A stretch of DNA of 64,000 nucleotides from a virus (IMGVR_UViG_3300043093_000048:32001-96000); one strand, 5' to 3'. Positions 38,423 to 64,000 are shown, counted from the first letter of the stretch. The notes: a model not told the origin generated them from the letters alone. A program made the numbers and translations.

Positions 38423-40321
38423 ATGATTAGCAAAAATTTAAAAATTAATGTAAATGATCTATTTAATGATCCAGATGAAAGTAAGTATGAAGAATTAATG
38501 AATGAAATTTCAACTTATATTACAGAGGATATTGAAAGAAGACATGAAACTTGTTTGGTATCATTTATGGGAGAAAAATTAAAAGAACTACCTTTGGGAC
38601 AGACTTTAACTTATCTAATAATTCTTGAACCATTTTATGTTTATAGTGAAGATATTAATGTTGATGTTATTCCAGATGTAAGTAATATTAATGAAATTGA
38701 AAAGTATTATGATTGGTGTATTGATTATTTTGGTATTCAATTAGGTAATACTGATATTGGTGAAGTTCTAGTAGATATTATTGATAGACTTAACCAAATT
38801 ACTTGTGATATGACACAAAGTTTTGGACCAACATTTGATTTACACACATTTATTAAAATTGCTGAAAGAAATAAAAGATTTGCAGAGATTTTGTATGAAC
38901 CAGATAAGTTTGTTAAAGAAAATGAAGGTAATCTAACTGCTGAAGAAATTGTAAATCATACTCATGATATTATTGATGAAGTTCAAGAATGTATCATTAA
39001 TGATCCAGATAATAATTTTAAGAACTTTATTACTTCTGGAGCAGGAATTAACTCAAAACAGCTTGGACAGGTTCTTGGTTATATTGGTCTTAAGCCAGAT
39101 CTTAAAGAGAAAATTATTCCAAGATCAATTGATACAAATTTCTGTATGGGATTAAGAAATATTACTGATTATTATATAAATGCAGTAGGTTGTCTTAAAG
39201 CTCTTATCACTGTTAAAATTCAAACTAAGAATTCTGGTTATCTTACTAGAAAGCTTCAGATACTTCTTAATGATGAATATATTTCTGATGTAGATGATTG
39301 TGGTACAAAACACTTACTACCTTTTACAGTAGAAAGTAAAGCACATCTAAATCATATAAATAATCTTTATTATTCTAAGAAGTCTAACGGAACAAAACTT
39401 TCTAAAATTAATAGTGATAAAAATAAAGATCTTATTGGTCAGACAATTTATTTAAGAACTCCTATTACTTGTGCTTGTAATAATGGTATTTGTAAAAAGT
39501 GTTATGGAGATATGTATAAGATTAATCAGAATATGAATGTTGGTTTAATTGCTGCATTAACTATTACTAATATGATTACTCAAACAAATCTTTCAGTAAA
39601 GCATCTTCTTCAGGCTGTTGTATTGAATAATCTTCATCCAGATCTTCTTAAATATTTTAATATTGAAATTGATAAGCTAAGTATTAAAGATGAATATCTT
39701 GATAAGATTAGTTTAGCATTTAATAGAGATATTAGTTGTGATAATCCTAATGGTGAATATGAAGTAAGAACTATTACTGTAATAGATGGTGATGAAATAA
39801 TTGATATTGAAAATCAAATTCTATTTAATATTAATCCAGAGATTAATGAACTAATTACTTCAGATGTTAATAAAGATTTAGATAAATATGTAGTTAAAGG
39901 TAAAAAGCTAAAAGACTTTGATTATATTTTTAATTATTCAGTTGAAAATAATTCATTATCTGGTCCTATGCTTAAGTTAAAAGAAATTATTGAAAAGAAT
40001 GAGTTTATTAAATCTCATGATGCATTTGAATTGTTTAATAAGATTGTAGAAATTCTTATTGAAAGTAAAAGTAAAACTGATTATATTCATATTGGTGTTC
40101 TAATTAAGAATCTAATGAAAGTAGAAGGAAATAGAGAATCATTTACTAATAAGGAATTTCCTGAATATACACTTTATTCTGTTCCTGATGCTATTCATTA
40201 TTGTTCAAATAGTATTTCTAAGCCATTGCTATTTGAGAGAATCAAGGATCAGTTGTTACTTGATAAATACGGTACATTAGATAAGAGAGGTTACTCTAAC
40301 TACGATGTACTATTGAAGTAA
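38423..40321 (+). CDS. Phage multisubunit RNA polymerase beta'-like C-terminal subunit, probably non-virion RNAP
   Basis: SGYLTRKL, DDCGT, RTPITC...ICKKCYG, trigger loop TQTNLSVKH; early motif 38337-38347. Confidence 0.9.
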   Translation: MISKNLKINVNDLFNDPDESKYEELMNEISTYITEDIERRHETCLVSFMGEKLKELPLGQTLTYLIILEPFYVYSEDINVDVIPDVSNINEIEKYYDWCIDYFGIQLGNTDIGEVLVDIIDRLNQITCDMTQSFGPTFDLHTFIKIAERNKRFAEILYEPDKFVKENEGNLTAEEIVNHTHDIIDEVQECIINDPDNNFKNFITSGAGINSKQLGQVLGYIGLKPDLKEKIIPRSIDTNFCMGLRNITDYYINAVGCLKALITVKIQTKNSGYLTRKLQILLNDEYISDVDDCGTKHLLPFTVESKAHLNHINNLYYSKKSNGTKLSKINSDKNKDLIGQTIYLRTPITCACNNGICKKCYGDMYKINQNMNVGLIAALTITNMITQTNLSVKHLLQAVVLNNLHPDLLKYFNIEIDKLSIKDEYLDKISLAFNRDISCDNPNGEYEVRTITVIDGDEIIDIENQILFNINPEINELITSDVNKDLDKYVVKGKKLKDFDYIFNYSVENNSLSGPMLKLKEIIEKNEFIKSHDAFELFNKIVEILIESKSKTDYIHIGVLIKNLMKVEGNRESFTNKEFPEYTLYSVPDAIHYCSNSISKPLLFERIKDQLLLDKYGTLDKRGYSNYDVLLK

Positions 40322-47766: not shown

Positions 47767-47829
47767 TTAAATATAACAAATATAAGATTTTGTTTTCCTA
47801 TATAAATCGTATTAAACTATATAATTGTA

Positions 47830-48042
47830 TATATATTATAATTGTGAATAAAGTAAATAATTACTTATATTCACTTCATATTATTGAAGTATTAGTGACG
47901 ATATTAAATCTAACATCACTTTAATAAATGTTAGAGTTTGTATGTTCCCTCGAAGAAACTCATGACCTGAAAAGATAGGGTCGTTATATGAGATAACAGA
48001 GTAGAGGTAAATTAGTACAAATATATCTTGGAGGTCATTATG
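47830..48042 (+). ncRNA. Repeated early promoter + structured 5' leader, copy 1
   Basis: TATATATTATAATTG, three stem domains, conserved TTTGTATGTTCCC...TGAAAAGATA...AGAGTA..GGTAAAT.AGTACAA, RBS. Confidence 0.75.
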
Positions 48043-48414
48043 ACTACAACAAAAACTATCACTAATCGTTTTAACACACAGGCTGAAGGCGTAGCTTTCA
48101 TTAAGAATCTTCTTGACAGCGATAGAAGAGAAGAAGAACTTATAACTGGTAAGTTCTTTGATATTCTTAAAAGAAGCACTGTAAACATTCAGGTAAGAAA
48201 CGGTAAAACTGCATTGGTGTTTGACACAGACTATGGAACTGTGTTGGAAACATTAACTGACAGCGATAAATTCTATTATATGGTAAAGGAGTTTACTCCT
48301 ACATATGAAAGAAATATTATGGATGATGTACTTATTTATATAGCACCGAACAACACCATGTTCTTTAAGGTTAGCAGAAATGGTTCTGTGTACTTGACAT
48401 ATAATAAGGACTAA
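48040..48414 (+). CDS. Small hypothetical early protein (cassette 1)
   Basis: ATG after GGAGG inside the repeated leader; terminator at 48429-48467. Confidence 0.75.
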   Translation: MTTTKTITNRFNTQAEGVAFIKNLLDSDRREEELITGKFFDILKRSTVNIQVRNGKTALVFDTDYGTVLETLTDSDKFYYMVKEFTPTYERNIMDDVLIYIAPNNTMFFKVSRNGSVYLTYNKD

Positions 48415-48525
48415 TTACTAAAATTATAATCACCTTGCTTCTTATGAATGCGAGGTGATTTTTTTTTCTAATTTTTTTATTTATATATTATTTATATGTG
48501 ATTAAATAAAAAGGAGTGAAATAAA

Positions 48526-48939
48526 ATGACTAAATCACAAATAAAACTGTGTGAGAAAATTTATAATAATAATAAATCTTCTTACTCAAGACTTACTATG
48601 ATGGCATTTTTGTTTAAAGGTAAGTCATTAATTTCTCAGGGTATAAACTCTGATAAAACTGATCCTATTCAAAATAAGTTCAGAAAACAAATTATAAATA
48701 ATGATAACTATATAGACAAAAGACATGCAGAAGTTGATTGTCTTAAAAGTTTCATTGAAGACAAAGAAATTGATTTTAAAAGTCTTACATTATTTGTTCT
48801 TTCAAAAAAAGCTAATGGAGAATATAGAAATAGTAAACCTTGTCCTATTTGCAGAAAAATGATTGAAAGCTTAGGTGTAGGTGAAATTTGTTATATTTAT
48901 AATGGTAGACTTATAAATGAAAAACTTCTCAATGTTTAA
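48526..48939 (+). CDS. Zinc-dependent cytidine/dCMP deaminase-fold protein
   Basis: HAE...SKPCPIC motifs; early-like motif 48482-48492. Confidence 0.8.
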   Translation: MTKSQIKLCEKIYNNNKSSYSRLTMMAFLFKGKSLISQGINSDKTDPIQNKFRKQIINNDNYIDKRHAEVDCLKSFIEDKEIDFKSLTLFVLSKKANGEYRNSKPCPICRKMIESLGVGEICYIYNGRLINEKLLNV

Positions 48940-48986
48940 TTAAAATTAAATTTTAAATACTATTATAACAAAATAGTATTAAGAAA

Positions 48987-49580
48987 ATGAATATTTTTAA
49001 AGGAGTAAATAAAATGGTAAATCTAATTAAAAATGAAAATGATTCAATTCTTAAAGTGGATGGTACTGATTTTAAGATTTCTAATGAGCTAGCTAGTTTT
49101 CTAGAAGCTACTAATAGTCTTAATGATGATACTATCACTAAAACCATCAGCAAAGCTGGTGTAATTACATTGAAAATTAAGAGTCTTACTTACACTATCT
49201 GTAATGATAATAAGAAAAAGATCCTTAATATGTACAAAATTAATAATAATGAAGGAGTAATTCATATGAAGACATTTATCAAGTTTATGAAACCAAAGCA
49301 GGAAAGTGGTAAGAAGAACCCTTTTAATTCTCTTATTCTAAGAGTACTTAAGCCAGCACTTAATAACGTGGAATTTGAAGATATTGATGCTGTAAGATCT
49401 ACAGTATATGATACACTTAAGCCACTTATGAGTGAAAATTCTAAGTGGGAAATTGAAGATAATACTAAGACACTTGGTCTTGTTGTAAAGAATGAGTATC
49501 TTAAGGAAGGTAAGGAATATCCTTCTCATAATATCTTCTTTATTAATGTAGTACCAGAAGAGTCTACAGCATCTGAATGA
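48987..49580 (+). CDS. Hypothetical protein (start may be ATG 49014)
   Basis: AAGGAG before 49014; terminator at 49587-49619. Confidence 0.7.
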   Translation: MNIFKGVNKMVNLIKNENDSILKVDGTDFKISNELASFLEATNSLNDDTITKTISKAGVITLKIKSLTYTICNDNKKKILNMYKINNNEGVIHMKTFIKFMKPKQESGKKNPFNSLILRVLKPALNNVEFEDIDAVRSTVYDTLKPLMSENSKWEIEDNTKTLGLVVKNEYLKEGKEYPSHNIFFINVVPEESTASE

Positions 49581-49667
49581 TATATAAAAGGTATAAGCTT
49601 TAAAAGCTTATACCTTTTTATTAAACAAATTTTAATTTATATAATAAATTTTAGGAGGACTATTGTC

Positions 49668-50123
49668 ATGGAAGAAAGAATTGAAAAATTTACAAATAAA
49701 GAATTTTATGAGGTAGTTAATAAAATTTCTACTGCAGTTATTAAAAGAGTATCATCAATTGAAATGAATTCTATTATAATTAGAGCTAATATTAATGATT
49801 ATTATATTTTTATTGGAAAAAACTTATTTATATTTTCTCTTAAAGAATATAGCGATGATAAATATATTACATTTGAACATATTCTTTTAATTAATAAAAA
49901 AAATCATAGTGTAAATAATTTTAATGATATTAAACTAAAAGATATATCAATTACTGATAATAGCGATACTATTGGTGATACTATTGACGAATTAATAACG
50001 GAAATAAACTATCAAAATGATAAAGAATTTAATAATATATTACTATCTCGATATCAAATTTATAAAAAGAATCTTATCTCAGAAATTGAGAAAGTTAAAA
50101 ATTATATTGAATTAGTGTTTTAA
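49668..50123 (+). CDS. Hypothetical protein
   Basis: AGGAGG RBS; C-terminus (EI..V.NYIELV) resembles the next gene. Confidence 0.7.
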   Translation: MEERIEKFTNKEFYEVVNKISTAVIKRVSSIEMNSIIIRANINDYYIFIGKNLFIFSLKEYSDDKYITFEHILLINKKNHSVNNFNDIKLKDISITDNSDTIGDTIDELITEINYQNDKEFNNILLSRYQIYKKNLISEIEKVKNYIELVF

Positions 50124-50134
50124 AAGGAGTTATT

Positions 50135-50533
50135 ATGATAATTAAATGTAAAAAAGATTTTGAAGCTTTTGTAAGTGTTATGATTGCATCTTGTATAAAG
50201 AGTGATAAGAAAATTTATATTTATGAAGAAAATAATATAAAAACTAATAATATGATTTATAAGCATGTATGTATTGAAAAAGATGTTTTTTCATTTATTT
50301 ATAGTTTTTCTAAAACATCTAGCCTTCAGTTTGCTCATCAAAAACTTGATTCAGAAAGAATTTATAATATGTTTAAACAAGGGGAAGAAATTTCTTCTAA
50401 TATTAATCTTTATCTTATTGATTGTGAACATAGTTTAACACATGATTTTAATCTTACTTTATCAAATGAAGAAATCAATAAAGAAATTCATTCAATATGT
50501 AATTACATTGAAGTTGTACTTAATGTAATCTAA
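50135..50533 (+). CDS. Hypothetical protein
   Basis: AAGGAG RBS; ends EIHSICNYIEVVLNVI; terminator at 50550-50595. Confidence 0.7.
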   Translation: MIIKCKKDFEAFVSVMIASCIKSDKKIYIYEENNIKTNNMIYKHVCIEKDVFSFIYSFSKTSSLQFAHQKLDSERIYNMFKQGEEISSNINLYLIDCEHSLTHDFNLTLSNEEINKEIHSICNYIEVVLNVI

Positions 50534-50617
50534 AATAAATAAATTTTAATTTAATACATAAGCTTATTTTAAATAAGCTTATGTATTTTTTTTTTTGTAT
50601 TTAATTATAATGCTGAA

Positions 50618-50817
50618 TATATATTATAATTGCGAATAAAGTATTTAATTACTTATATTCATACTTAGTGTAGATAATTAAATCCAATAAGCACTTAAAT
50701 AAATATTGGAGTTTGTATGTTCCCTTCGAAGAAACTCTTGGTTGAAAAGATATATACCATATAAGAGATAACAGAGTAAAGGTAAATTAGTACAAATATA
50801 TCTTGGAGGTCATTATG
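50618..50817 (+). ncRNA. Repeated early promoter + structured 5' leader, copy 2
   Basis: Same conserved blocks as copy 1 with compensatory stem changes. Confidence 0.75.
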
Positions 50818-51282
50818 ACTAATCGGGCTAAAGAGAGTAAAGAAAAATGTGTGAATATGTTCACTTTTCAACTTCCGCTTATCCTGAGTACTTATCAGCT
50901 ACATGCTAATATGAAAAACACTCAAGAAGGCTTAGCTGAAATACCCGAAATCAAATTGGATGAAAATATGGCTAAGAGCTTAATCTTATCCAATTCCATT
51001 ATTCTTGAAAAAGATAATGGAGAAAAAACGATCTATGATTTATCTTATGATGAGTCTATAGATTGTATTGAGGAGTATGATCATGAAAGTGACGATATTC
51101 GCCGTTATTGTGCTAGCGTTGATCGTGATATCGATTATTCTAAGAGAATAACAAACGCAACATCAAGTCTTCTTAATCTCATTATGGATAAAAAGCTTTA
51201 TGTCATTTCCATCATTAATGGTGGAGTATGTCTTAAAGAAAGTGAAGGTGAACATGTGTATAGACTGTATTCAAAAGATTAA
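50815..51282 (+). CDS. Small hypothetical early protein (cassette 2)
   Basis: ATG after GGAGG in the leader; terminator at 51323-51354. Confidence 0.75.
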   Translation: MTNRAKESKEKCVNMFTFQLPLILSTYQLHANMKNTQEGLAEIPEIKLDENMAKSLILSNSIILEKDNGEKTIYDLSYDESIDCIEEYDHESDDIRRYCASVDRDIDYSKRITNATSSLLNLIMDKKLYVISIINGGVCLKESEGEHVYRLYSKD

Positions 51283-51392
51283 TCAATAAAATGTGTGGAA
51301 AGGAGAATGATATTGATGATTAAAAAACGTACTGTAATGGTGCGTTTTTTTTTTAGTAAAAATTATTGACTGTATTTAATTATAATGCTGAA

Positions 51393-51584
51393 TATATATT
51401 ATAATTGTGAATAAGAATAATTTATATTCTATTCAAATAAGGATGAGTATGAATCTAGTAGCCTTATTACTAGAAATTTGTATGTTCCCGAAAAACATGT
51501 ATGGTTGAAAAGATATAATACCAATATACATGAGAAAAGAGTAGGTAAATAGTACAAGTTAATATTCAAAAGGAGTTTATTATG
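51393..51584 (+). ncRNA. Repeated early promoter + structured 5' leader, copy 3 (more diverged)
   Basis: Conserved loops retained; stems fully covaried. Confidence 0.7.
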
Positions 51585-51989
51585 TTTACTATTAATTCTG
51601 TTGAAGATTTCAAAATGATTGTAAAAAGAGTTTTAGAAGTTGCTGCAACAGGTGAAAAGGACATAAGAACTGTAAAATCCTTTAACGATAACGATGATGA
51701 CTGGTTTGTAGGAATCGTCATTGAAGATGATGAAGCTCGCAATATGGTTACAATTCAGGGAGGAAGAAATAATGACTATATTGTAGCAGATCTTTTCTTT
51801 AACGTTAAGGAGAAGGATGTAAATCTTCTTATGAATGAAAAGTATTACGGAAACGGTAATCTCTGCCATCTGGTTAGAGTTAATGAAGATTTTACCGCAG
51901 TGCTTTCCATTCGCAGATTTATCGACAATGAAGAAGACTTTGAAGCCCTTGTCGGTACGGTAAAGTTTATGGTTATGAAAACATCATAA
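51582..51989 (+). CDS. Small hypothetical early protein (cassette 3)
   Basis: AAGGAG RBS at the end of the leader. Confidence 0.75.
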   Translation: MFTINSVEDFKMIVKRVLEVAATGEKDIRTVKSFNDNDDDWFVGIVIEDDEARNMVTIQGGRNNDYIVADLFFNVKEKDVNLLMNEKYYGNGNLCHLVRVNEDFTAVLSIRRFIDNEEDFEALVGTVKFMVMKTS

Positions 51990-52335: not shown

Positions 52336-52429
52336 CAACTTCAATGTACCCCCTTTAATTAGGGGGTATTTTTTTTTTCATTAAAGTTTAAATATTTATA
52401 TTATTATTAAGCAAAGGAGTTGATTTATA

Positions 52430-53368
52430 ATGTCAAAAAAGTATACTATTGATGATATTAAAGAAATGATTTATAATAAATATAATGGAGAATATATTTG
52501 TTTATCAAATGAATATAAAAATAATAAAGAGAAAATTAAGATAAAGCATAATATATGTAATAATATATTTGAAATGAGAAGTGGTAATTTTTTAAATAAT
52601 AATAATCGTTGTCCTTACTGTAAGAATAAAAATGATGGAAAAACTAATAAAACAGTTACTAAAATGACTAAAGAAGATTTTATTAAACGTTTAGATAATG
52701 ATTATGAGTTAGTCAGTGATTTTATTAATTTAAAAACTAATGTAGACTTATTACATAAATCATGTGGTAATATTTATAATGTAAGACCCGATAATTTTTT
52801 ATATAATAATCATAGATGTGAATGTACTAGAGTTAAGCATAAATATACAATAGAAGATATTCAAAAGTATTTTAATAAAATAAATGACTATGAACTAATT
52901 TCTAAAGAATATGTCAATAAAAATGAAAAATTAAAAATTAAGCATTTATCATGTGATAATATATTTGAAATGTCATTAAATGATTTTAAGAATAATAATT
53001 ATAGATGTCCTAAATGTAAAGCATCTAAAGGAGAAAATAATGTAAGAACTTTTCTATTAAATAATAATATTAAATTTACTGAGCAAAAGCGTTTCAATGA
53101 TTGTAAAGATAAAAGAACTTTACCGTTCGATTTTTATTTAGAAGATTATAATATCTGTATAGAATATGATGGTGAATTACATTATAATAAAGCTAGATAT
53201 AAAAATGATGAAGAATATAATCAGGATAAATTAAATATTACTAAAAAACATGATGAAATTAAAAATGAATATTGTAGAGTAAATAATATAAGACTTATTA
53301 GGATTCCATATACAGAGTTTGGTAATATTGAAAAGATTCTTAAAAAGGAGTTGAATATTAATGCCTAG
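52430..53368 (+). CDS. Zinc-ribbon-repeat/Vsr-like endonuclease, tandem copy 1 (3 repeats)
   Basis: KHxxC...RCPxC repeats; LPFDFYL...IEYDGELH. Confidence 0.82.
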   Translation: MSKKYTIDDIKEMIYNKYNGEYICLSNEYKNNKEKIKIKHNICNNIFEMRSGNFLNNNNRCPYCKNKNDGKTNKTVTKMTKEDFIKRLDNDYELVSDFINLKTNVDLLHKSCGNIYNVRPDNFLYNNHRCECTRVKHKYTIEDIQKYFNKINDYELISKEYVNKNEKLKIKHLSCDNIFEMSLNDFKNNNYRCPKCKASKGENNVRTFLLNNNIKFTEQKRFNDCKDKRTLPFDFYLEDYNICIEYDGELHYNKARYKNDEEYNQDKLNITKKHDEIKNEYCRVNNIRLIRIPYTEFGNIEKILKKELNINA

Positions 53369-54095
53369 AAAATTAACTTATAAAGAAGTTAAAGATATTA
53401 TAGAAGAAAATGGTGAATATACTTTATTATCTAAAGAGTATTTAAATAATAGACAGCATTTATTAATAAGACATAATTGTAATAAATGTAATAATAATAT
53501 CTTTGAAAGAAGTCTTTATGTATTTCAAGCAGGTAAAAAATGTCATAAATGTGCTATAATAAATAGAACTAAATTAAAAACTAAAACTACTGAAGAATTT
53601 AAAGATGATATTAAAAGAATATTTAATGATGAAATGGAAGTTATAGGAGATTATAAAAATAATAAAACTAAAATATTAATGTATAGTAGAAAGTGTGGTC
53701 ATTATTTTGAAGGGTATCCTATAAATCTTTTAAAAGGTTGTGGATGTAATATATGTACTATAAGATCTAAAGGTAATGAAAAAATAGATTCTATATTAAA
53801 TGAATTAAATATAAATCATAAGTCTGAATATAAATTTGAAGATTGTAAATATAAAAGAACTTTATCATTTGATTTTTACTTAGAAGATTATAATATCTGT
53901 ATAGAATATGATGGAGAACAACATTATTCTAAGAATACTTTTAGATATGGTGAAAAATTTGAAGAACAACAAAAACGTGATAATATTAAGAATAATTATT
54001 GTAAAACAAACAATATAAAACTTATTAGAATTCCTTATACTGAATTCGATAATATTGAAAACATTCTTAAAGAGAATATAAAAGGAGAAAAATAA
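53361..54095 (+). CDS. Zinc-ribbon-repeat/Vsr-like endonuclease, tandem copy 2 (2 repeats)
   Basis: FDFYL...IEYDGEQH; start overlaps the previous gene. Confidence 0.82.
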   Translation: MPRKLTYKEVKDIIEENGEYTLLSKEYLNNRQHLLIRHNCNKCNNNIFERSLYVFQAGKKCHKCAIINRTKLKTKTTEEFKDDIKRIFNDEMEVIGDYKNNKTKILMYSRKCGHYFEGYPINLLKGCGCNICTIRSKGNEKIDSILNELNINHKSEYKFEDCKYKRTLSFDFYLEDYNICIEYDGEQHYSKNTFRYGEKFEEQQKRDNIKNNYCKTNNIKLIRIPYTEFDNIENILKENIKGEK

Positions 54096-59319: not shown

Positions 59320-61239
59320 TTAAGCATAAGTACCATCAAAACCACTTAATGTATTATTTTTCTTCTCATTGATCTTTGAAAATGGTGAATCTAATTTTAA
59401 TTCTAGTTTCTGCAATATTTTTTTATCACTAGAAACTTTCATTAATTTTTCCATTTTCTTTATTTGTTCTTGAATTTCTTTTTTCTGCTTCGGATTTAAT
59501 TTATCACCATTTTTATTTAATTCTTGTTTATATAATTCTAATATTTTTTTACATCTTGTAATATTAGAAGGATGACAATCTATAAAATACATTCCCATAT
59601 AAGATGTAAATAAAGTATATATTTTAGAAAGAGATGTAAGAACATCTAAAGAATTCATTGGATTATCTGAAATGGCTTCTAACCCAGTGTAGAGATCTTT
59701 ACCATAACCATGTTTAGCTGCAAAAGCATCTGCATATTTTTCAGCCTGATAGTCTAAAGTAAGAAGACCTGCTGAACCAACGTCTTTAAATAAAGATTTT
59801 ATTACTTTCATTAATATAATTTTAATAACTAATTTTATAGGTGTAAGTATTATATTTAATGTTTTATTAATTGCACCAAAGACTTCTCTAAAGCCACCAA
59901 TAATTTTATTAAATACAGTTAAATTAAGTTGTAATTTATCTCCAATAATATCATAAGATCCTGGATTAGATAACCAAACTAAAGTTTTATAAATAAATTC
60001 TTTTTGTTTAGTTGGAAGAAATTCTAATGGCATTTTAAATAATGTTTCAATTAAAAATTCTAATAAATCTTTTGTATATTCTCTAAAAGCACCTTCAGAA
60101 TTATTTAATAAAAATTTCCAAGTTATTTCTAAAATACCATCGACTATATTTTTACTACTATTATAACGAATATATTCTTTTCGTACAAAGAAATTATGTC
60201 CTATTTCATGAAGAAATATTGCATTAACTTCTTCTTTAGTAAGTTCACCTGTTAATAATTTAGGATAAATATAGATATTAATTTTTTTATCAGTTGAATC
60301 TTTAAATTTAATTCCTTCAGAATTTTCAACTAAATCATAATTCTGCTTTTTAGTTTTACTAGCAACATTAATCCAATTTATAGTAAAAGCATTTTGAACG
60401 CCATAATTACTACCAATATGAATATTTAATTTTTCTAAATTAAAATATTTTTCTAATTTAGCTTCAGCTTTTCTAATATCATTTTTATATTTATATGGAT
60501 TTTCATTATGACTAACTGCATAAATAAGTTTTTCCCATAATTCATCTTCTATTTCTTTCATTGTATTGGATTTTCCATAGAAAGCTTCATTATAATAATT
60601 ATCTTCTTTTAAACTTGTTGCAGTATTATAAGCTCCTAATCCAGTAGTGAAAACTGAAGCACCTGCAGCAATTGCTAATTGTTTATTTTGTTTCTTTAAT
60701 TCGTTAATTCTATTATTCTTCCAAATACTAAAGCTTTCTTTTGAACCAGATTGTTTATAAAGCTTTTTAGCTTCACTATTATTATTTAATAATTTTAATT
60801 CTTTATTATTTTTTACTAATGTTTTAAAACTATAAACAGATCCTGCAGCTCCTGCTCCAGTTATAGCTAAATTTTTAGATACTTTTCCAACATTTCTACC
60901 GTTTATATTGAAATTATTAAAATTAACATTTGATATGTTTGGAGCTATATATTTACCTTTTTTATTTAAAGTATTATAAGCTCCTAATCCAGTAGCTCCT
61001 ACTACACCTAAATTACTATATCTTAAATTTTTAATTTGTCCGTTTAAATACATTTTTCTTTCTGAAAGCCATTTAGAATAAGGTTTTTCACTTCCAGAAT
61101 CTCTATATATTTTTTTAGCTTCTGTAGGATTATTTAATAATTTTAATTCTTTTTTTAAATTAGCAAGTTCTAATGTATTAGCAGCACCTGCAGTAGCAGC
61201 CAAACCCATAGTACCTAATCCTATTTGTTGTCTAGTCAT
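59320..61239 (-). CDS. Zinc metallopeptidase (M48-like) fused to duplicated basic/hydrophobic head-protein modules
   Basis: HEIGH, EKYADAFA..HGYG, HPSN..R; two N-terminal KELKLLNN..EAKK.Y..SGS modules; late AACT motif 61271-61282. Confidence 0.7.
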   Translation of the reverse strand: MTRQQIGLGTMGLAATAGAANTLELANLKKELKLLNNPTEAKKIYRDSGSEKPYSKWLSERKMYLNGQIKNLRYSNLGVVGATGLGAYNTLNKKGKYIAPNISNVNFNNFNINGRNVGKVSKNLAITGAGAAGSVYSFKTLVKNNKELKLLNNNSEAKKLYKQSGSKESFSIWKNNRINELKKQNKQLAIAAGASVFTTGLGAYNTATSLKEDNYYNEAFYGKSNTMKEIEDELWEKLIYAVSHNENPYKYKNDIRKAEAKLEKYFNLEKLNIHIGSNYGVQNAFTINWINVASKTKKQNYDLVENSEGIKFKDSTDKKINIYIYPKLLTGELTKEEVNAIFLHEIGHNFFVRKEYIRYNSSKNIVDGILEITWKFLLNNSEGAFREYTKDLLEFLIETLFKMPLEFLPTKQKEFIYKTLVWLSNPGSYDIIGDKLQLNLTVFNKIIGGFREVFGAINKTLNIILTPIKLVIKIILMKVIKSLFKDVGSAGLLTLDYQAEKYADAFAAKHGYGKDLYTGLEAISDNPMNSLDVLTSLSKIYTLFTSYMGMYFIDCHPSNITRCKKILELYKQELNKNGDKLNPKQKKEIQEQIKKMEKLMKVSSDKKILQKLELKLDSPFSKINEKKNNTLSGFDGTYA

Positions 61240-63125: not shown

Positions 63126-63457
63126 CTTTAAATTTTCATATAAGGTCGTTAAGCTTATATCGTTCTCTTATGAACTGCTATATATTACTATATAGAAAAG
63201 ACTATATCTTCATAGAAAATATTTCTATGCTCCCCATTTCGATTTAATTAGGAATTATAAGATTATTACTCTAAACCTAAACCACTTGGCTCTACTCTAC
63301 TCCCTTCTTCAGCTATTCAATAATAGCTTATAGTTTCGATAGTCGTTGAACTTTTATTCTAAGAATTCTTAGAATACTTAGCTGCTGATTGTCCTTGTTT
63401 TAAGGAGTTTCCAGCAATTAGAGGAGTTTAGACAGGACTCAAGATTATCGTTGGTTA
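63126..63457 (-). ncRNA. Group I intron 1 of recA (332 nt, no ORF)
   Basis: P1 ACAGGAU/GUCCUGU; P, Q, R and S elements; P9 with GUAA loop; terminal G at 63126. Confidence 0.9.
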
Positions 63458-64000
63458 ATCCTGTTTGAGATAGTTTATTGCAGCTTGCGTCTTAGCAAAT
63501 GCATTTATCTCAATTTTTTGAGTTATATGGTTAATTGCAATTAAGATAATATTTCCTCTTTCAAGAGGACCTGCTAATCTCTTAATAATAGAATTATTAA
63601 TTCTTGCAATAGATGTTGCTGACATCTGACCACTTAATTCATCTTCTTCAGAAATCCCTTCAGGAATAGTTAAAGCCCAACTATCTAATAAAATTACTGT
63701 AGGTGGTAAAACATAAATAGGATTTCCATCACTATCTACTTCACCAGAATCTAACTTAATTTCATCATAAGTTTCAGGCTTATTCTTAAGCTTATCAATA
63801 GATTTAACTAATTTATAAATGCTTTCAGAATAAATATTTCTCTGAAGATTCTTATACTTCTTTTCAATAGTTTCATCAGACCAACCAGAAATAGTTTTAA
63901 CCCTAGAAACATTAGTTGCTCTTTCAAAGTCATAATGGAAAATATTACCATTCTCATATGGTTCAACAATAGAACAAGCCATCTTAATAGCTAACGAACT
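63458..64000 (-). CDS. recA: RecA/UvsX-like recombinase, exon 1 (5' end lies beyond the window)
   Basis: Open frame from the window edge (SSLAIKMA, end of Walker A); YDFE, Walker B ILLDSW, IAINHI. Confidence 0.85.

Follow-up and report, generated by a model that had tools for sequence, protein, structure and literature searches.

A structured RNA leader of approximately 150-195 bases, with a 5' hairpin, a pseudoknot and a long arm bearing conserved loops, was found to precede seven unrelated small early genes of an uncultured jumbo phage. Three of the copies lie in the 64,000-nucleotide (nt) stretch of DNA analyzed here (the window; bases 32001-96000 of the 265,109-bp uncultured viral record IMGVR_UViG_3300043093_000048; 24.8% G+C). 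The stems of the leader have diverged between copies with their pairing retained, and chance falls far short of explaining how consistently they pair. Structured 5' leaders and regulatory cassettes are a known general kind, within which this leader represents a new RNA family of restricted occurrence. Judging from sequence comparison, it is probably a shared control module for the earliest messages of the phage.

Identification of the leader and its copies

The viral record was rated as complete by CheckV, and the phage is judged to be an AR9/phiKZ-type jumbo phage. A split multisubunit RNA polymerase (RNAP) subunit was found to be encoded at window 38423-40321 (phrog_3015, RNAP beta subunit, 6.8e-64), with 33-34% identity between its product and the AR9/PBS1 beta' subunit, and a divergent family B DNA polymerase is also encoded. 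The closest cultured relatives, at ~29-34% identity, were the Bacillus phages AR9, PBS1 and BpSp, the Listeria phage LPJP1 and Staphylococcus jumbo phages. Four metagenomic relatives had RNAPs that were 70-100% identical, and one of these is a complete 306-kb record (G004). Going by the sample identifiers of the relatives, the host might be a low-GC Firmicute of the rumen or gut.

BLAST, a motif scan and a covariance model (R1) agreed on exactly seven copies of the leader in the genome, all on the + strand. A preliminary description of the window had reported three copies, and all three were recovered at the coordinates given there; the genome total is seven. The search that it had proposed, of the rest of the genome and of related jumbo phages, thus yielded four more genomic copies and none in the cultured relatives or in G004. 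Three orthologous copies were contributed by two close strains (fragment L012 for c2 and c3, fragment L198 for c4). The invariant blocks TTTGTATGTTCCC and TGAAAAGATA had three exact occurrences each in the window, in its + strand leaders. The cores of the seven copies are as follows.

Genome 79889-80022, + strand: core of copy c1, in the window
Genome 82662-82797, + strand: core of copy c2, in the window
Genome 83434-83559, + strand: core of copy c3, in the window
Genome 107182-107308, + strand: core of copy c4, outside the window copies
Genome 147374-147506, + strand: core of copy c5, outside the window copies
Genome 178331-178464, + strand: core of copy c6, outside the window copies
Genome 258941-259076, + strand: core of copy c7, outside the window copies

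The fold and its comparative support

The 5' hairpin (P0) begins at the first predicted transcribed base; c4 lacks it, and among the six copies that have it, c3 and c5 differ in their inner stem. Next comes an H-type pseudoknot, formed between a 5-nt strand and the hairpin B loop; the return crossing is made by an A-rich linker, UUAAUAAA. The long arm starts 1 nt past the pseudoknot. From base to tip, it consists of a 6-bp closing helix, an asymmetric loop with UGUUC facing UAAAU(U)AG, a 2-5-bp helix, a second internal loop, a 5-7-bp upper helix and a 4-5-bp apical stem, which carries an 11-14-nt loop starting with UGAAA and is accompanied by a 3-6-nt bulge on the 3' side. In the second internal loop, the lower helix is directly adjoined by GAA on the 5' strand and by AGUA on the 3' strand. 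An A/U-rich linker of 8-14 nt joins the base of the arm to GGAGG, in the ribosome-binding site (RBS), and to the ATG.

Every helix named in the preliminary description was present. The loop that it had placed at the tip of the arm was confirmed, and the further covarying apical stem and the 3' bulge had been missed. Likewise, the purine-rich internal loop was found, with a 3' strand of 11 nt (AUAACAGAGUA) and not AGAGUA alone. The features of the three window copies are given below, where ORF denotes an open reading frame, aa amino acids, +1 the transcription start, and S1 and S2 the two stems of the pseudoknot.

47808-47844, + strand: c1 promoter, with the CGTATTAAA box at 47808-47816 and the core TATATATTATAATTG at 47830-47844; predicted +1 is G 47846
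47846-47872, + strand: c1 5'-terminal hairpin P0, GAAUA...UAUUC with inner AAGUA/UACUU, opening at the predicted +1
47874-47889, + strand: small extra hairpin specific to c1 (fold prediction), an insertion that is an alignment gap in the other six copies
47894-47935, + strand: c1 H-type pseudoknot (covariation)
47894-47898 with 47916-47920, + strand: c1 pseudoknot S1, AGUGA with UCACU (covariation)
47909-47915 with 47929-47935, + strand: c1 pseudoknot S2 (hairpin B), UCUAACA with UGUUAGA (covariation)
47921-47928, + strand: c1 A-rich linker UUAAUAAA, within the pseudoknot
47937-48021, + strand: c1 long arm, with closing helix UUUGUA/UACAAA, internal loop UGUUC/UAAAUUAG and helix CCUC/GAGG
Within 47937-48021, + strand: upper part of the c1 arm, with the loop-E-like GAA.../...AGUA loop, CUCAU/AUGAG, apical GACC/GGUC and 3' bulge GUUAU
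47968-47978, + strand: c1 apical loop UGAAAAGAUAG, closed by GACC/GGUC
48022-48042, + strand: c1 A/U-rich linker and RBS, with the GGAGG Shine-Dalgarno (SD) sequence at 48030-48034 and the ATG at 48040-48042
48040-48414, + strand: c1 cargo ORF, 124 aa, no family (ORF call, family searches)
About 48431-48470, + strand: hairpin and T-run downstream of c1, read by eye
50553-50587, + strand: intrinsic terminator upstream of c2 (terminator scan)
50597-50632, + strand: c2 promoter, core at 50618-50632; predicted +1 is G 50634
50634-50660, + strand: c2 5'-terminal hairpin P0 (fold comparison)
50667-50710, + strand: c2 pseudoknot and hairpin B, AGUGU/GCACU and UCCAAUA/UAUUGGA
50712-50796, + strand: c2 long arm, CCUU/AAGG, CUCUU/AAGAG, apical UGGU/ACCA and loop UGAAAAGAUAUAU
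50798-51282, + strand: c2 linker, RBS, ATG (50815) and cargo ORF, 155 aa, no family (ORF call, family searches)
51322-51350, + strand: intrinsic terminator between the c2 cargo and c3 (terminator scan)
51372-51407, + strand: c3 promoter, core at 51393-51407; predicted +1 is G 51409
51409-51434, + strand: c3 hairpin P0, two GAAUA/UAUUC helices with a bulged A
51438-51474, + strand: c3 pseudoknot and hairpin B, UAAGG/CCUUA and UCUAGUA/UACUAGA, with a 7-nt hairpin loop and no A-rich linker
51477-51558, + strand: c3 long arm, lower stem cut to CC/GG and upper stem extended to CAUGUAU/AUACAUG
51559-51989, + strand: c3 linker, RBS (AGGAG), ATG (51582) and cargo ORF, 135 aa, no family (ORF call, family searches)

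Pairs were counted in a model-guided alignment of eight distinct sequences (paralogs and close strains) over 26 pairs, the structure having been derived from the same sequences as those counted. Standard pairs occupied 97.1% of the pair cells compared with 83.7% in shuffled alignments, none of 500 of which reached the observed value, and when the partners were slid by 1-3 columns only 33-53% of the cells were paired. Changes on both sides were observed in 14 of the 26 pairs, against 6.6 expected. In S1 of the pseudoknot, four of the five pairs had changed on both sides and 95% of the cells were paired, which bears out the covarying pseudoknot proposed earlier; the strand versions observed were AGUGA/UCACU, AGUGU/GCACU, AGUGC/GCACU, AGAGU/GCUCU, UAAGG/CCUUA and AAGAG/UUCUU. 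In S2, three of six pairs had changed on both sides (98% paired).

The helices of the arm were all 91-100% paired and contained compensatory changes. A G-C pair of the closing helix was replaced by A-U in c4 and c6, the upper stem occurred in four versions among the copies, and the apical stem had four covarying versions (UGACC/GGUCG, UUGCC/GGCGA, UGGU/ACCA and UGGU/ACCG). In c3, a loss of 2 bp from the lower stem is offset by a gain of 2 bp in the upper stem, which preserves the length of the arm. The strain copies showed further changes of this kind: the c2 ortholog in fragment L012 reads AGUGC, which turns a G.U pair of the pseudoknot into G-C, and in the c4 ortholog in fragment L198 a C-G pair of hairpin B is changed to A-U. 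Together, the four additional paralogs and the three strain orthologs added compensatory changes in every helix, as the covariation proposed for further homologs required. The nested part of the proposed fold lay 0.2-5.3 kcal/mol above the minimum free energy of each copy (within 0.2 for c2), and the SD sequence was unpaired in it.

Conservation of the loops and the divergent copy c4

The mean pairwise identity was 82% in unpaired columns and 73% in paired columns, and this agrees with the earlier observation that the unpaired segments are conserved and the stems change compensatorily. By loop, the identity was 100% for UGUUC, 90% for its partner strand, 95% for the apical loop and 89% for the A-rich linker; by stem, it was 57-58% for the pseudoknot strands and 61-68% for the upper stems. 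Loops conserved above stems are expected where the loops make sequence-specific contacts and the stems need only to pair. The GAA/AGUA internal loop followed a loop-E-like consensus, matched at the level of sequence only, in six of the seven copies, and in c4 it reads AAA/AAUA. The apical loop, which had been described as invariant, was present throughout but not invariant, as it reads TGAAACCATA (RNA UGAAACCAUA) in c4 and TGAAATGATA (RNA UGAAAUGAUA) in its strain ortholog. The UGAAA pentamer of this loop may be T-loop-like, a label drawn only from comparison of the pentamer by eye with the T-loop consensus.

A leader of this kind might act as a passive stabilizer and insulator with no specific partner, in which the +1 hairpin and the compact fold block 5'-end-dependent decay (of the RNase J1/Y type in Firmicutes) and keep the RBS single-stranded. 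In Bacillus subtilis, 5' stem-loops and phage-derived 5' stabilizers are established. A +1 hairpin also opens most of the other early leaders in this phage and its relatives, the cassette precedes unrelated cargo genes, and c4 exists without several of the supposedly invariant features, all of which suit this explanation. A purely structural role, however, leaves the conservation of the loops above the stems unexplained, and an elaborate arm of ~85 nt has been kept although the relatives manage with leaders of ~70 or ~15 nt. We therefore regard a purely passive role as unlikely, while giving it serious weight.

The invariant ATG within TATGTTCC raised the question of leader-peptide control, in which the conserved AUGUUCC would open a short upstream ORF (MFP...) that regulates the downstream gene. 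GGAG is found 5 nt upstream of this ATG in four of the seven copies, but this apparent SD sequence, which c1, c3 and c6 lack, is hairpin B's covarying 3' strand. Moreover, the reading frame varies from 3 to 17 codons with unrelated sequence past MFP or MFL, and it stops 50-85 nt ahead of the main ATG, so leader-peptide control is extremely improbable. A longer conserved ORF across the element was also considered and was discarded, as stops were found in every frame on both strands.

The early promoter and the predicted start site

In the AR9 report, the early promoter of the AR9 virion RNAP was mapped by primer extension and dRNA-seq as AAATATATATTAT-(6N)-G(+1), and the AT-rich form of the consensus is ...TATATTAT-N6-G(+1) (PMC5312081). 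Each window copy opens with the promoter core TATATATTATAATTG, at 47830, 50618 and 51393, and closes with GGAG(G)-N-ATG, which are the two ends that the preliminary description had assigned to it. The copies read TATATATTAT followed by AATTGT and G, in agreement with the AR9 consensus and its Table S2. The predicted +1 is the G at window 47846, 50634 and 51409, the first base of the 5' hairpin. With the start placed on this G by homology to the AR9 promoter, the whole element is predicted to be transcribed.

The same 15-mer was over-represented in the relatives, with 25 matches in G004, 7 in G001 and 0 in the reversed control. In several units of the relatives, the SD sequence begins 4-5 nt past the promoter motif, which would force the start to lie at or near that G. 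Host-type sigma70 sites were not enriched (31 vs 33.8 expected). The leader family fills 7 of roughly two dozen early-promoter-like sites in the genome.

Cassette organization and cargo genes

Each copy forms part of a cassette in the order terminator, early promoter, leader, RBS and ATG, one unrelated small ORF (the cargo gene) and usually a terminator. Among the seven copies, pairwise identity climbs from ~0.3-0.4 to 0.6-1.0 about 35 nt upstream of the core, at the common CGTATTAAA box, persists at a high level across the leader, at 0.7-0.8 from the linker to ~10 nt past the ATG, and then falls to 0.23-0.32. The seven downstream proteins (77-155 aa) showed no significant mutual similarity, with no blastp match among them better than E=0.1, so the genes are unrelated, as had been proposed. 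They comprise one M48-like HExxH segment, two small-membrane-protein-like products, one PHROG of unknown function and three products without a match. The M48-like metalloprotease segment (Pfam E=4.3e-5) lies in the 139-aa c5 cargo (genome 147524-147943; L004:1660-2076); a weak M48 segment was also seen in a 639-aa protein of the window (59320-61239, - strand). In the strain fragments L012 and G006, the same cargos are retained beside c2/c3 and c4.

Intrinsic terminators were found directly upstream of c2 and c3, and hairpin and T-run signals upstream of c5, c6 and c7 and after six of the seven cargo genes. Six of the seven units are monocistronic, closed by a hairpin and T-run that is followed by an independent promoter or a convergent gene.

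This layout resembles the promoter-early stem-loop (PeSL) cassettes of T4-type phages, which allow homologous shuffling of accessory ORFs (PMC2839356, PMC4122927), in that an intergenic terminator hairpin and early promoter are repeated between unrelated accessory ORFs. PeSLs, however, are short composites of a terminator and a sigma70 promoter without a long transcribed fold, whereas the element described here has an AR9-type promoter in place of a sigma70 promoter, a covarying leader of ~150-195 nt, an RBS and an ATG. The likeness would suit a module that acts at the DNA level only, with a 230-bp repeat shuffling accessory genes and an incidental RNA structure; the sharp homology boundaries around terminator, early promoter, leader and unrelated ORF, the appearance of c5 as a c1/c2 mosaic, and the similar behavior of the T4-type cassettes (PMC2839356, PMC4122927) all fit such a module. 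Yet recombination would favor identity, and the stems have instead diverged in a compensatory manner with pairing kept at 97%, which requires selection on RNA pairing. DNA-level shuffling is compatible with a role of the RNA and cannot explain the compensatory changes; as the sole function, we give it very little credence.

The position of the leader also recalls the put RNAs of HK022, which are structured, multicopy, located directly downstream of early promoters and cis-acting, as we propose for this leader. A put-like RNA would make the virion RNAP resistant to terminators while the leader is nascent; the copies lie directly downstream of early promoters, like putL and putR, and the c1 unit is followed by five genes without an early promoter of their own. 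The put RNAs, however, consist of two simple stem-loops that act on host RNAP reading through terminators. Here, six of the seven units consist of a single gene with a terminator behind it, where read-through would be purposeless; this speaks against antitermination, and conservation through the RBS and ATG points to translation. A put-like function is consequently very improbable.

A product acting in trans is a slimmer prospect still. Seven strong early promoters would make the leader one of the most abundant early RNAs, and, cleaved or still attached, it could act early as a decoy or sponge that occupies a host factor (a defense sensor, an RNase or a tRNA-binding enzyme, for example); the conserved loops fit this idea, as do the cargos, which are accessory and probably host-takeover genes. 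Against it, nothing points to processing sites, an RBS and ATG accompany each copy at conserved spacing, and no ORF-free copy exists in the genome.

Searches for known families and homologs

With the 4227 models of Rfam 15 at gathering thresholds, the sole match in the window was a group I intron away from the leaders, no match overlapped any of the seven copies, and in a permissive scan nothing overlapped them at E<=10 (window) or E<=1 (the four other loci). These results support the earlier view of a functional RNA fold outside the known families. In particular, neither the T-box model (RF00230) nor any riboswitch model matched the leader in the permissive scans, and no terminator-like hairpin was found inside it.

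Like a T-box leader, the element is ~200 nt long, occurs in a low-GC context and has an irregular long arm; the arm carries an internal loop that matches the S-turn consensus in sequence in six of the seven copies and, at its apex, a possibly T-loop-like pentamer. Unlike a T-box leader, it lacks the T-box sequence, an antiterminator or terminator, a K-turn and a variable specifier position, and it carries its side bulge on the 3' strand. The combination of invariant loops and covarying stems is a classic riboswitch signature and, like the loop-E-like GAA/AGUA motif and the possibly T-loop-like UGAAA pentamer, would be compatible with a ligand- or tRNA-sensing switch (riboswitch- or T-box-like) in which binding at the conserved loops alters access to the RBS. 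The apical loop can, moreover, pair with the linker ahead of the SD sequence in five of the seven copies, with 9 bp in c2 and c5 (equaled by 1-2 of 300 shuffles). Copies c2 and c5 showed this pairing strongly and c1, c6 and c7 to a moderate degree; c3 and c4 lacked it, and it was not adopted as an RBS switch. CCUC was likewise considered as an anti-SD sequence and was rejected by reasoning from sequence, as the alternative pairing is only 4 bp, equal to that with its partner in the arm. A switch thus finds no conserved expression platform, no terminator or antiterminator inside the leader and no known model that matches, and the cargos have no common metabolic theme; we consider it improbable.

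Homologs were sought more widely with sequence patterns and the covariance model. A blastn search of cultured phages gave no match to the leader, and the covariance model found nothing significant in the relatives G001-G004 and G007 or in AR9, LPJP1, BpSp and AH12. A two-block pattern scan of IMG/VR returned at least 107 matches, and among the 80 listed loci that were screened with the covariance model only L012 was genuine. Three-block pattern scans yielded only L012 and L198 as genuine, and a scan with a junction pattern gave two new IMG/VR matches that both lay inside coding sequence. In a metagenome collection, ten matches were obtained and none was related: seven (L208, L209, L211, L212, L214, L215 and L216) belonged to an unrelated repeat of ~300 bp in seven contigs, without promoter, hairpin or RBS, and the other three were unrelated single matches. 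Among 185,579 species genomes, the three-block pattern had 0 matches and the junction pattern 20, none of which fits the covariance model; two of them, in Sharpea, were antisense coding coincidences and not spacers.

AR9 belongs to the same phage group and uses the same promoter class, and the AR9 report gives long early untranslated regions (UTRs), of 26-491 nt, in which a motif without a known role was predicted (Lavysh et al. 2017, PMC5312081, Fig. S3). The covariance model of the leader detected nothing significant in AR9, BpSp, LPJP1 or AH12.

Proposed function of the leader

We tentatively favor a cis-acting, post-transcriptional 5'-UTR module that combines protection and insulation of the message with docking of a trans partner at the loops, through which the seven cargos are co-regulated; we put this somewhat below an even chance. 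A cis-acting post-transcriptional role is favored by the conservation through the RBS and ATG, the unpaired SD sequence, the arm base abutting the 5' edge of the RBS and the monocistronic, terminated units. The injected virion RNAP would produce the leader as the transcribed 5' UTR of a modular early-gene cassette. The leader would then fold on its own into three parts, the hairpin at its 5' end, the H-type pseudoknot and, stacked beside the latter, the long irregular arm. The strong SD sequence, apparently unpaired, would lie 8-14 nt downstream of the arm base. In a first layer, the structured 5' end would protect the message and insulate the RBS from whatever cargo ORF follows. In a second layer, the UGUUC/UAAAU(U)AG, GAA/AGUA and UGAAA..AUA loops would form a docking surface for a trans partner, most likely a protein; this layer is proposed because the loops are conserved and is drawn from loop conservation only. 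The partner would occupy the 5' edge of the RBS, so that expression of all seven cargo genes would rise or fall in concert.

Translational control of this type has precedents in phage T4. The leader of T4 gene 32 carries a 5' pseudoknot from which an A/U-rich single strand runs into the RBS, and a bound protein controls initiation, while T4 RegA co-represses many early mRNAs. The present leader shares with the gene 32 leader a 5' pseudoknot followed by an A/U-rich stretch into the RBS. Unlike the gene 32 and RegA operators, it has an extra large arm and seven copies on unrelated genes, and it shows no sequence or model similarity to them.

Several observations weigh against the module with a docking partner. 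Copy c4 and its ortholog have no P0, carry AAA/AAUA for GAA/AGUA and have an altered apical loop, and these deviations mean that not all of the seemingly invariant features are essential. Because paralogs and close strains make up the alignment, the counted pair changes do not represent independent events. Folding of single sequences was undistinctive (z = -2.1, +0.3 and -1.7), and the crossing loop of the c3 pseudoknot is 1 nt and looks sterically tight. The start site is taken from AR9, a phage with an RNAP only ~33% identical. As for a partner, no candidate was found: searches with working controls gave no L7Ae, L25, S21 or S1-domain protein in the phage, and no gp32- or RegA-type partner was identified, the RegA search having had no positive control and being uninformative. 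Finally, the leader family was found in one phage lineage only among the relatives, IMG/VR, metagenomes and species genomes searched.

A bolder possibility is that the leader is a new class of regulatory RNA receptor, in which the pseudoknot stacks on an arm that bears a loop-E-like motif and is capped by a T-loop-like one. Its specific ligand could be a metabolite, a tRNA, the ribosome or a factor from phage or host, and binding would switch a seven-gene early regulon, transcribed by the virion RNAP, on or off as a unit. We consider this possible but rather unlikely; if true, it would add to phiKZ/AR9-type phages a level of post-transcriptional control that has not been described for them.

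Jumbo phages with their own RNAPs have been studied mainly through their promoters and polymerases, and post-transcriptional control of their earliest messages is barely known. Here, one RNA fold is reused on seven unrelated early genes, and its helices have already been mapped by natural compensatory mutations. Should the fold bind a specific partner, the seven genes would make up an early regulon controlled after transcription, and the fold would be a new module for RNA-protein or RNA-ligand recognition. Should the leader be only a stabilizer and insulator, it would be a natural portable expression cassette for low-GC hosts.

Leaders of related phages and sister families

The relatives combine the same promoter with other leaders, whose lengths include ~70 nt and ~15 nt, and in some the promoter runs directly into the RBS. 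In G004, six units (L136, L142, L144, L147 on the - strand, L156 and L157; ~1517-1600 in each) share a leader of ~70 nt with the order GAAACAU, hairpin, A-rich linker, pseudoknot strand and AAGGAGG. The hairpin loop pairs across the A-rich linker with a strand 5-9 nt upstream of the SD sequence; this pseudoknot was 90% paired, with four of five pairs changed on both sides, compared with 17-38% in slid controls. The two families are alike in having the same promoter, an H-type pseudoknot with an A-rich linker and unrelated early genes downstream. However, the G004 leaders have neither the long arm nor the 5' hairpin, their sequences are not alignable with ours, and they gave no match to the model. 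The G004 leaders are a sister family and not the same family. When the long arm is treated as an insertion, the pseudoknot occupies the same place relative to the SD sequence in both phages.

The long leaders L135, L141 and L150 of the relatives were examined as possible homologs and were rejected: a +1 hairpin and a pseudoknot recur in them as themes, but the arm does not. The leader at L141:1517-1600 (G001:53232), from a 66-kb relative, contains an exact TTTGTATGTTCCC core; here the long arm is missing, and UGUAU/AUACA encloses GUUCCCA, a loop of 7 nt. This leader may represent the base of the arm in a minimal or ancestral state.

A second early-leader family with the same promoter was found in three copies (L007:1501-1610, genome 96313; L116:633-730, genome 106303; and genome 158748). 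The loop of its +1 hairpin has a GACACC-like sequence, and its RBS region is unusual, reading (A)UGG(G)UG(G)CGGAAAG, 6-8 nt before the ATG. The complementarity of CACC and GGUG suggests a pseudoknot between the loop and the RBS. More generally, most early leaders in this phage and its relatives (window 2473, 18505 and 28252 on the - strand, among others; L132-L160) open with a hairpin in which pairing starts at the predicted +1 G, which looks like a general rule for virion-RNAP transcripts in the clade.

Other features of the window

After the c1 terminator, window 48526-50533 holds five + strand ORFs with their own RBSs and without the early-promoter motif. The first of these (48526-48939) shows a deaminase-like HAE...PCxxC pattern when inspected by eye. 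Window 52413-53401 contains internal direct repeats of ~66-119 nt that are 70% identical and include repeated RBS and start regions; they fall within and between the ORFs 52430-53368 and 53361-54095. A group I intron was identified at window 63178-63467 on the - strand (Rfam RF00028, 79.6 bits, E=1.4e-18).

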